Position numbers and translations under genes: made by a program. A stretch of 42,441 nt of DNA from Escherichia coli (lineage in GTDB: Bacteria; Pseudomonadota; Gammaproteobacteria; Enterobacterales; Enterobacteriaceae), in assembly GCF_003334385.1 (NCBI RefSeq), contig NZ_QOWN01000037.1; one strand, given 5' to 3'. Below the pieces are notes generated by a model. It worked only from the letters and a program-made list of their open reading frames with translations. It had not been told where the DNA came from and did not search any database. Of this stretch, positions 7,780 through 7,899 are shown piece after piece. How positions within the stretch are numbered: the first letter of the stretch is position 1; every line of letters begins with the position of its first letter.

Positions 7780-7899
7780 ATGTTAGACATCATGACCAAC
7801 CCAATTCTCGGTGGTTTAGTTACCACATTCGCCATCTGCTTCGGTTTCACTATCTGGTCTGAAGTAGATGACTGGATGTGGGAACGCAAAAACAAATAA
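7780..7899 (+). CDS. Small hydrophobic ORF (39 aa) in the pL leader upstream of N
   Basis: MLDIMTNPILGGLVTTFAICFGFTIWSEVDDWMWERKNK; GAGG 8 nt upstream; one predicted TM helix. Not in the track (under 60 aa). Confidence 0.3.
   Translation: MLDIMTNPILGGLVTTFAICFGFTIWSEVDDWMWERKNK

Follow-up and report, generated by a model that had tools for sequence, protein, structure and literature searches.

A conserved 39-codon reading frame ahead of N in the pL leader of a lambdoid Escherichia coli prophage, with a predicted membrane peptide of PHROG 7482 as its product

A stretch of 42,441 nucleotides (nt) on contig NZ_QOWN01000037.1 of Escherichia coli (assembly GCF_003334385.1), called the window here, carries an HK620-type immunity region with its leftward (pL) direction on the + strand. 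Between nutL and the N-type antiterminator gene, the transcript from pL carries an open reading frame (ORF) of 39 codons, from the ATG at 7780-7782 to the TAA at 7897-7899, for which direct reading of the sequence gives the peptide MLDIMTNPILGGLVTTFAICFGFTIWSEVDDWMWERKNK. This ORF is the subject of the present study. Judged by its conservation, it is a genuine protein-coding gene, which RefSeq misses, and it belongs to the catalogued but uncharacterised phage protein family PHROG 7482. Due to an in-frame stop at 7759-7761, position 7780 is the first possible start, and a spacer of 8 nt separates the ATG from the Shine-Dalgarno (SD) sequence GAGG. The ATG is located 171 nt downstream of the end of nutL, whereas the stop is followed by the N start codon after 40 nt and by the N SD after 30 nt. 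A preliminary description, made from the letters of the window alone, had given the coordinates, the GAGG 8 nt upstream and the peptide, all of which are exact on direct reading, and its estimate of about 170 bp from nutL agrees with our measurement. Its figure of 40 bp to the ribosome-binding site (RBS) of N does not hold for the RBS itself; it is the distance to the start codon.

The features of the leader and its surroundings are collected in Table 1. The coordinates of pL and the operators rest on the HK620 annotation, carried over by an offset that was verified, the sequences being 94-100% identical. nutL is 100% identical to the annotated nutL of HK620, and the N-type gene, which is the next cistron after the ORF, corresponds to the HK620 N annotation with 97% identity. 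A promoter and terminator scan revealed no terminator-like site on the + strand between pL and N. The small hairpin between the ORF stop and the RBS of N is devoid of a U-tract. It travels with the ORF and is absent from the ORF-less leader of HK620; elsewhere, the letters of its stem are changed yet complementary (GCACA-AGGA-TGTGC; ACACACA-TTCA-TGTGTGT). Next to it, in the window variant only, CCTTCC (7923-7928) is complementary to the SD of N. The SD of the ORF is not sequestered, as the probability of being unpaired at positions -15 to +3 amounts to 0.37-0.70 in 11 lineages, compared with segment means of 0.39-0.48.

Table 1. Features of the pL leader and its surroundings in the window.
Feature	Position	Strand	Remarks
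cI-type repressor	6244-6960		
122-amino-acid membrane protein	6980-7348		Equal to HK620 hkaS
Operators OL2 and OL1	7479-7495 and 7504-7520		Overlapping pL; HK620 annotation
pL promoter	7493-7521	+	-35 TTTACA, 17-nt spacer, -10 TATTCT; promoter scan
nutL	7567-7608	+	boxA GCTCTTTAACA 7568-7578; boxB hairpin TCCCGC-CGAAAT-GCGGGA 7591-7608
Long closing stem	7620-7762	+	5' arm GTTGGCTTTGGGGTGTGGTG, 3' arm ACCACACCACCAAAGCTAA, branched tip
Antisense ORF, 51 amino acids	7758-7913	-	Open in all copies
SD of the 39-codon ORF	7768-7771	+	GAGG, read directly
Predicted single-pass membrane peptide gene, member of PHROG 7482	7780-7899	+	Conservation, profile match, AlphaFold
Small hairpin	7908-7921	+	ACACA-AGGA-TGTGT, between ORF stop and N RBS
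N-type antiterminator gene	7930-8212	+	SD GGAGG 7930-7934, ATG 7940, 90 amino acids, arginine-rich motif NARNRRRARRQAQRE

The length of the ORF alone is not beyond chance. The 3-kb stretch around it is overlapped by 53 ORFs of at least 20 amino acids, and a 39-codon ORF by itself is thus within expectation. Its conservation in related prophages, however, is beyond chance. Two independent DNA patterns combined with BLAST retrieved 41 copies in total, which encode 18 distinct peptide variants; the C-terminal pattern accounts for 38 of these copies. A degenerate pattern for the C-terminal nine codons hit 31 IMG/VR contigs, and this first set comprises 15 distinct nucleotide versions encoding 12 peptides; an independent pattern for the N-terminal eleven codons hit 34 copies, three of them new, and adds three peptides. 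All 41 copies have the ATG in register, exactly 39 codons and the stop directly after K39, and in all lineages GGAG, GAGG or AGGA precedes the ATG by 5-9 nt despite differing flanks. Even copies of about 85% identity, encoding MLEIITNPILGGAIITFAIGIGFTIWSEVDDWMWERKNK, keep the same frame. Conservation of the frame and its RBS in related prophages is what the preliminary description had named beforehand as a test, and it was found in each of the 41 copies. The chance ORF, which the same description had kept as an alternative, was rejected on the conservation of start, frame, length, stop and SD.

The pattern of substitutions points in the same direction. Pairwise ratios of nonsynonymous to synonymous substitution rates (dN/dS) range from 0.14 to 0.59. 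In the sense frame, the pooled ratio of nonsynonymous to synonymous polymorphism (pN/pS) is 0.25, variable columns are distributed as 16/8/32 over the three codon positions, and replacements are conservative, with a mean BLOSUM62 score of +0.42. Both CGC and AGA are used as the codon of Arg36, and both TAA and TGA serve as the stop, while the invariant nucleotides near the 3' end of the ORF are largely TGG-ATG-TGG, i.e., codons without synonyms. The conserved object is a protein and not an RNA. Among 1.84 billion representative proteins, three longer gene calls end in 39 residues that are 67-69% identical to the peptide, and these calls are located between a cI-type repressor and an N-peptide gene on unrelated prophage backbones. 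A padded query of 45 amino acids gave six matches in a large protein database, and the search of representative proteins gave seven. One of these seven, a repetitive protein of 694 amino acids (P0010) matched with E 4.7e-10 in nine stretches, was judged a chance or low-complexity artefact. A protein of 1680 amino acids (P0026) is listed in the 90% cluster of the 39-residue peptide, which looks like a clustering artefact.

The peptide matches PHROG 7482 over its full length (E 8.1e-25, residues 1-39 on profile positions 1-39 of 46), and a second peptide variant does so with E 1e-22. In every one of the 15 prophage variants, the maximum Kyte-Doolittle mean over 19 residues lies between 1.56 and 1.88. 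Based on an alignment of 18 sequences, AlphaFold2 predicts a helix at residues 2-6, a break at N7-P8 and a helix at residues 8-38 with a mean predicted local distance difference test (pLDDT) score of 85. The preliminary description had considered a gene for a small peptide with a single transmembrane (TM) segment, and this assignment is supported by the preserved frame and SD, the pN/pS value, the hydrophobic core in every variant and the one long helix of the AlphaFold model. A search of published full text with peptide strings, the PHROG number and small ORFs of N leaders yielded no description of the ORF or its peptide; a preprint on Pas small RNAs of prophages was set aside, as it deals with other loci.

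A tblastn search against 50,697 phage records revealed homologues exclusively in 31 virulent myoviruses, with 32-35% identity. Mooglevirus gp86, a 'putative membrane protein' of 46 amino acids in Shigella phage Sf18, matches PHROG 7482 at E 1.6e-29, and hhalign aligns the prophage peptides with gp86 over 37 columns (probability 97.1%, E 5.5e-11). The Avunavirus homologues comprise 45 amino acids, e.g., Av05_0034 of Escherichia phage Av-05, and have two motifs in common with the prophage peptides, M-[LI]-[DE]-I-[IL]-x-N-P-I-L-x-G at the N-terminus and S-E-[IV]-D-D-aromatic-x-aromatic-x-[KR]-[KR] in the juxtamembrane segment. Taken together, the virulent members of PHROG 7482 resemble the prophage peptide in their single TM helix, an S/G-E-[IV]-[SD]-D-aromatic motif and a basic tail. 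The prophage form has 39 amino acids and a W-M-W aromatic motif, and its gene occupies the N leader of temperate lambdoid prophages. The virulent forms, which are 34-38% identical, exceed it by 6-7 residues and are encoded by stand-alone genes among small early-region genes in phages without N. The three Trp codons of the prophage peptide correspond to Phe, Leu or Lys in the virulent homologues. Because the virulent phages with homologues have no N, the peptide itself is the conserved object.

In the virulent phages the gene follows a long intergenic gap. It is promoter-proximal in both groups, behind pL in the prophages and, on weak evidence, behind a promoter-like site in the virulent phages. 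This site, TTGCAA-17-TATAGT, ends about 40 nt before the homologue in Mooglevirus and Avunavirus (L041 533-561; L043 1439-1467); it is a weak match of 9/12, with counts not above those in shuffled sequences.

Comparison with HK620 reveals how the ORF is embedded. Colinearity is lost at window position 7634 and regained at 7929, just before the SD of N, with 70 bp in HK620 against 294 bp in the window. The extra DNA consists of two parts, namely a stem tip of the 933W type and the ORF with its SD and trailing hairpin. HK620 and 933W share the flanking sequence without the ORF, the N RBS directly following the stem. The ORF lengthens the N leader by approximately 160 nt relative to HK620. Its part of the extra DNA, including SD and hairpin, has no blastn match among the 50,697 phage records. 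Of the complete E. coli genomes, 21 contain the segment 7560-7960 with 97.5-100% identity. An identical module is carried by E. coli SCU-308 (NZ_CP053281, 1507395-1507795). The hosts in which the prophage form occurs include E. coli, E. albertii, Citrobacter sp. and Atlantibacter hermannii. All prophage copies of the gene precede an N-type gene by 38-57 nt, the product of which has an arginine-rich motif, and the gene is linked to at least six N types, to different boxB sequences and to different immunity regions. It thus represents a portable module in a promoter-proximal, N-independent slot of the pL operon. The order nutL-stem-ORF-N is common to the copies with the exception of IMG/VR contig L029 (6459-6640), which reveals nutL-ORF-stem-N with an N of the 933W type. 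Consequently, the ORF moves independently of the stem and behaves as a module of its own.

From this arrangement we conclude that the ORF is an inserted module which, as read from the promoter and terminator content of the leader, is expressed within the pL operon. A moron with its own promoter and terminator was rejected, since pL is the only promoter-like site and no + strand terminator follows the ORF. An 8-bp direct repeat, TAATCATC, flanks the ORF module (7759-7766 and 7897-7904), while the HK620 junction has a single AATCATC. The repeat resembles the trace of an insertion or recombination event; as it is absent in other lineages, it was dismissed as a target-site duplication. Moreover, there are two contigs in which the ORF breaks off after 22-24 codons and continues into unrelated sequence (L044 2501-2665; L045 362-523). 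In one of these truncated copies, a deletion removes N and joins an ERF recombinase region, and the other abuts integrase genes. Their products, P0005 and P0006, stem from defective prophages that have undergone deletion or rearrangement, and they are silent on function.

The stem tip in the extra DNA belongs to the long stem of the N leader, past which the SD of the ORF begins after 6 nt. The stem folds with -64.4 kcal/mol (z = -3.5). Its arms (GGxTTTGGGGTG... / ...CACCxCCAAAGCC) are conserved in both ORF-bearing and ORF-less N leaders, including HK620 and 933W, with compensatory changes in 10 of the 17 stem pairs and with tips ranging from 15 to about 105 nt. The tip in the window matches the N leader of 933W, and of many Shiga toxin (Stx) phages, with 96-97% identity. 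Among the relatives, the stem is found in L001 (~1720-1805) and L009 (~898-1044), and also in L004, L005, L007, L008, L014, L029 and L031. At gathering as well as permissive thresholds, Rfam assigned no family to ORF or stem and returned only chance matches (a CRISPR repeat, a microRNA hairpin). The N leader of lambda contains an RNase III site and, by analogy, the stem is probably a processing site, possibly one for RNase III.

Other leaders carry other material at this place. In E. coli EC20 (L004 1928-2008), the tip of the stem is a tRNA-like cloverleaf ending in ...CACACCACCA, denoted 'tRNA-OTHER' by the Prokaryotic Genome Annotation Pipeline (PGAP), and relative L012 has a canonical GGTTCGATTC T-loop about 200 nt upstream of its ORF. 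The tip in the window, which is of the 933W type, is not called a tRNA by ARAGORN. A reading along the lines of transfer-messenger RNA (tmRNA), in which a tRNA-like element is combined with a short ORF, was dropped, because ARAGORN finds neither tRNA nor tmRNA in the window. In phage HK140, another insertion occupies this position of the leader (L002 1742-1867). The GTG-started ORF of 41 amino acids annotated there, HK140_048, covers a stem arm and lacks hydrophobic character, and is thus probably a spurious gene call. With its differing stem tips, tRNA-like inserts and the 39-codon ORF, the N leader is a site of module swapping.

For the product of the gene, we propose a single-pass inner-membrane peptide that would bind a host membrane protein early in lytic development, a proposal which we give about an even chance of being correct. 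Translation in vivo, action in trans and the kind of target are what we infer from the comparisons above. When the repressor leaves OL, polymerase starting from pL would transcribe nutL, the long stem, the gene, the small hairpin and N, in this order. The gene would be the first cistron of this transcript and would be translated from its own exposed SD. Since no terminator precedes it, its product should be made without N-dependent antitermination. It would appear simultaneously with N, ahead of all delayed-early genes, and would be silent in the repressed lysogen. The predicted peptide has an acidic N-terminal cap (M-L/I-D/E-I-I-x-N-P), a putative TM helix at about residues 8-27 with a small-residue face formed by A18/G20/G22, and a juxtamembrane tail S-E-V-D-D-W-M-W-E-R-K-N-K. 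Due to the acidic N-terminus and the basic C-terminal RKNK, the positive-inside rule suggests an N-out/C-in topology in the inner membrane. Helix-helix packing with a host inner-membrane protein is the likely mode, and the effect would be an altered host physiology in the first minutes of lytic development, be it by take-over, exclusion or counter-defence. Action as a lytic pore is considered not likely. The homologues in virulent phages without N, together with purifying selection over the whole length, favour a peptide acting in trans rather than a mere upstream ORF of N, although it may play a dual role in which its translation also affects N.

Several observations speak against such a host-directed peptide. 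PHROG 7482 is listed as 'unknown function', and the peptide has no significant match among Pfam, NCBIfam or PADLOC families. The module is rare: the ORF was identified in 31 of 5426 complete E. coli genomes, four of these copies having only about 85% identity. In two scans of 100,044 species-representative genomes, neither DNA pattern occurred, and no isolated temperate phage in the phage collection carries the ORF according to blastn and tblastn. Being rare in E. coli and absent from these two collections, the gene is dispensable; it is a rare accessory gene. Even in an identical copy, PGAP/RefSeq does not annotate the ORF, while a few GenBank records list the peptide as a hypothetical protein of 39 amino acids. 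Furthermore, its strict adjacency to N in every prophage copy would also fit a role in cis, and a short motif in the predicted peptide resembles the Ldr/Fst toxins.

These points lead to the explanations that compete with our proposal. That no gene exists at all, and that the ORF is due to chance, to a conserved RNA element or to a gene on the opposite strand, is very improbable. Short ORFs are indeed common here by chance and PGAP leaves this one without annotation, but frame, start, stop and SD are kept in 41 copies. The RNA of the window-type ORF folds into an internal hairpin of -38 kcal/mol; the variants, however, fold differently, and in an alignment of 15 sequences the share of paired cells is 73.3%, compared with 72.4% after shuffling, covariation scores no differently from shuffles, and RNAalifold retains only short, invariant helices. 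With pairing and covariation at the level of shuffles, the hairpin was rejected as the conserved object. As to the opposite strand, one antisense frame is open in all copies because it has its wobble positions at the same nucleotides as the sense frame. It was rejected on account of its pN/pS of 0.42 compared with 0.25, radical replacements with a BLOSUM score of -0.57, inconsistent hydropathy, variable ends and the lack of a promoter. A different matter is a cis-acting upstream ORF, in which the act of translation tunes N expression and the peptide is secondary. Translating ribosomes might, for instance, open a hairpin before the N RBS, protect the leader against Rho or RNases, or anchor the pL mRNA at the membrane. 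The invariable location 38-57 nt ahead of N, the small hairpin that travels between ORF stop and N SD with a changed but complementary stem, the potential of the window-type CCTTCC to pair with the N SD, and a leader about 160 nt longer than in HK620 would all suit such a device. Nevertheless, we regard it as quite unlikely, since purifying selection acts along the whole peptide, which would be needless if only the act of translation counted, and since homologues exist in virulent phages without N. In addition, the CCTTCC anti-SD is not conserved even in close variants, an RNA stem separates the ORF from N in L029, N has a strong SD of its own, and neither a + strand terminator nor an alternative attenuator structure was found from pL to N. 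In its position in the 5' leader just upstream of a regulator gene and in its Trp codons near the end, the short ORF resembles trpL and TnaC; in contrast to these, the peptide is hydrophobic and conserved over its entire length, a terminator of the attenuator type was not found, and homologues occur without a downstream N. Trp-sensing attenuation was rejected, as the virulent homologues do not retain the Trp residues and no terminator follows, and a regulatory leader peptide or attenuator in general because conservation spans the whole peptide and is not tied to N.

The remaining competitor holds that the product is a type I toxin of the Ldr/Fst kind, which oligomerizes in the inner membrane and depolarizes or arrests the host when pL fires, cI repression replacing the antisense antitoxin. 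Type I toxins are typically small, with a single TM helix and a short charged tail (PMC12648545), and the peptide has these properties. Its N-P-I-L-G-G-L/I-V/I-T resembles A-P-I-L-A-G-I-I-T of Ldr (NPILGGLVTT versus APILAGIITA), both end in W..W-R-K/N-R-K, and hhalign aligns 12 columns with Ldr. More generally, Ldr and Fst (PF13940, PF13955; NF033608) are likewise small single-TM peptides with a conserved Pro near the helix start (x-P-I-L/F-x-G-hydrophobic-hydrophobic) and a charged C-terminal tail. The comparators were checked with Pfam and NCBIfam, the Ldr sequence being confirmed by Pfam at E 1.8e-24. Against this stand the Pfam scan of eight members, in which neither Ldr_toxin nor Fst_toxin was matched, and hhalign probabilities of 21% for Ldr and 1.7% for Fst. 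No promoter-like site was found on the - strand in 6900-8400, which is a weak negative, as the consensus scan is insensitive. In contrast to type I toxin mRNAs, the SD of the ORF is not sequestered; a first product of strong toxicity would impair the development of the phage itself, and the homologues are ordinary early-region genes in virulent phages. Unlike Ldr and Fst genes, the gene is under control of the phage repressor at pL, inside an operon and ahead of an essential regulator. As neither a profile match nor an antisense antitoxin nor SD sequestration was found, membership in Ldr/Fst was rejected, and a toxin-like mode of action, which the preliminary description had named beside a regulatory one, appears unlikely.

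Returning to a peptide that acts on the host, comparison with known systems helps to define what would be new. In textbook lambda, pL directs the synthesis of no protein but N until antitermination sets in. The remark of the preliminary description that lambda has no gene at this place is in good agreement with established knowledge of lambda, and HK620 and 933W lack the ORF as well. Lambda encodes two other small early-left proteins which act in trans on host proteins, cIII (54 amino acids, an FtsH inhibitor) and Kil (47 amino acids, an FtsZ inhibitor). Both are located beyond tL1, are N-dependent and thus delayed-early, and are not transmembrane. Homologues of cIII and kil are present downstream in the window and its relatives. 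The 39-residue peptide is comparable to cIII and Kil as a very small early-left product with a proposed trans action on the host; unlike them, its gene precedes N and is N-independent, and the peptide is predicted to be transmembrane and is unrelated in sequence. Bacteria possess regulators of less than 50 amino acids and one TM helix that exert their effect by binding to larger membrane proteins (PMC12648545). AcrZ, MgrB, MgtS and CydX have a single TM helix like the one predicted for the peptide described here, which displays a small-xxx-small helix face. The peptide differs from these four in that it has no sequence relationship to them, is phage-encoded and is predicted to be expressed in lytic development only.

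In at least four enterobacterial species, some lambdoid prophages hence carry a second conserved gene ahead of N, with a product expected, independently of N, at the very start of lytic development. Such a gene may bring to light a novel early activity directed at the host, or a further level at which N expression is controlled. Going further, temperate lambdoid and virulent enterobacterial phages might share a new class of immediate-early effectors, in which a TM peptide of about 40 residues, made ahead of all phage proteins but N, disables or hijacks a host inner-membrane protein; in this wide form the idea is speculative and probably does not hold. Candidate targets may be a defence effector, the DNA-entry route of competitors, or FtsH/HflKC. 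In the prophage version, co-translational insertion might in addition bring both the nascent pL transcript and the synthesis of N to the membrane.

Some further features of the window were noted along the way. Between the hkaS-like gene and OL, a hydrophobic ORF of 35 amino acids, MNTKDIYFFGICLFSAFYAGYVKWIPIAIAAGIMG, is located on the - strand (7345-7452); it overlaps the region of the HK620 tIMM terminator and has no obvious SD. At gathering score, Rfam identified the lambda cIII thermoregulator at 10216-10274 on the + strand (88.5 bits) as well as a naRNA4/REP-like element at 18280-18350 on the - strand (60.7 bits), of which the latter may mark host chromosomal DNA or the boundary of the prophage.

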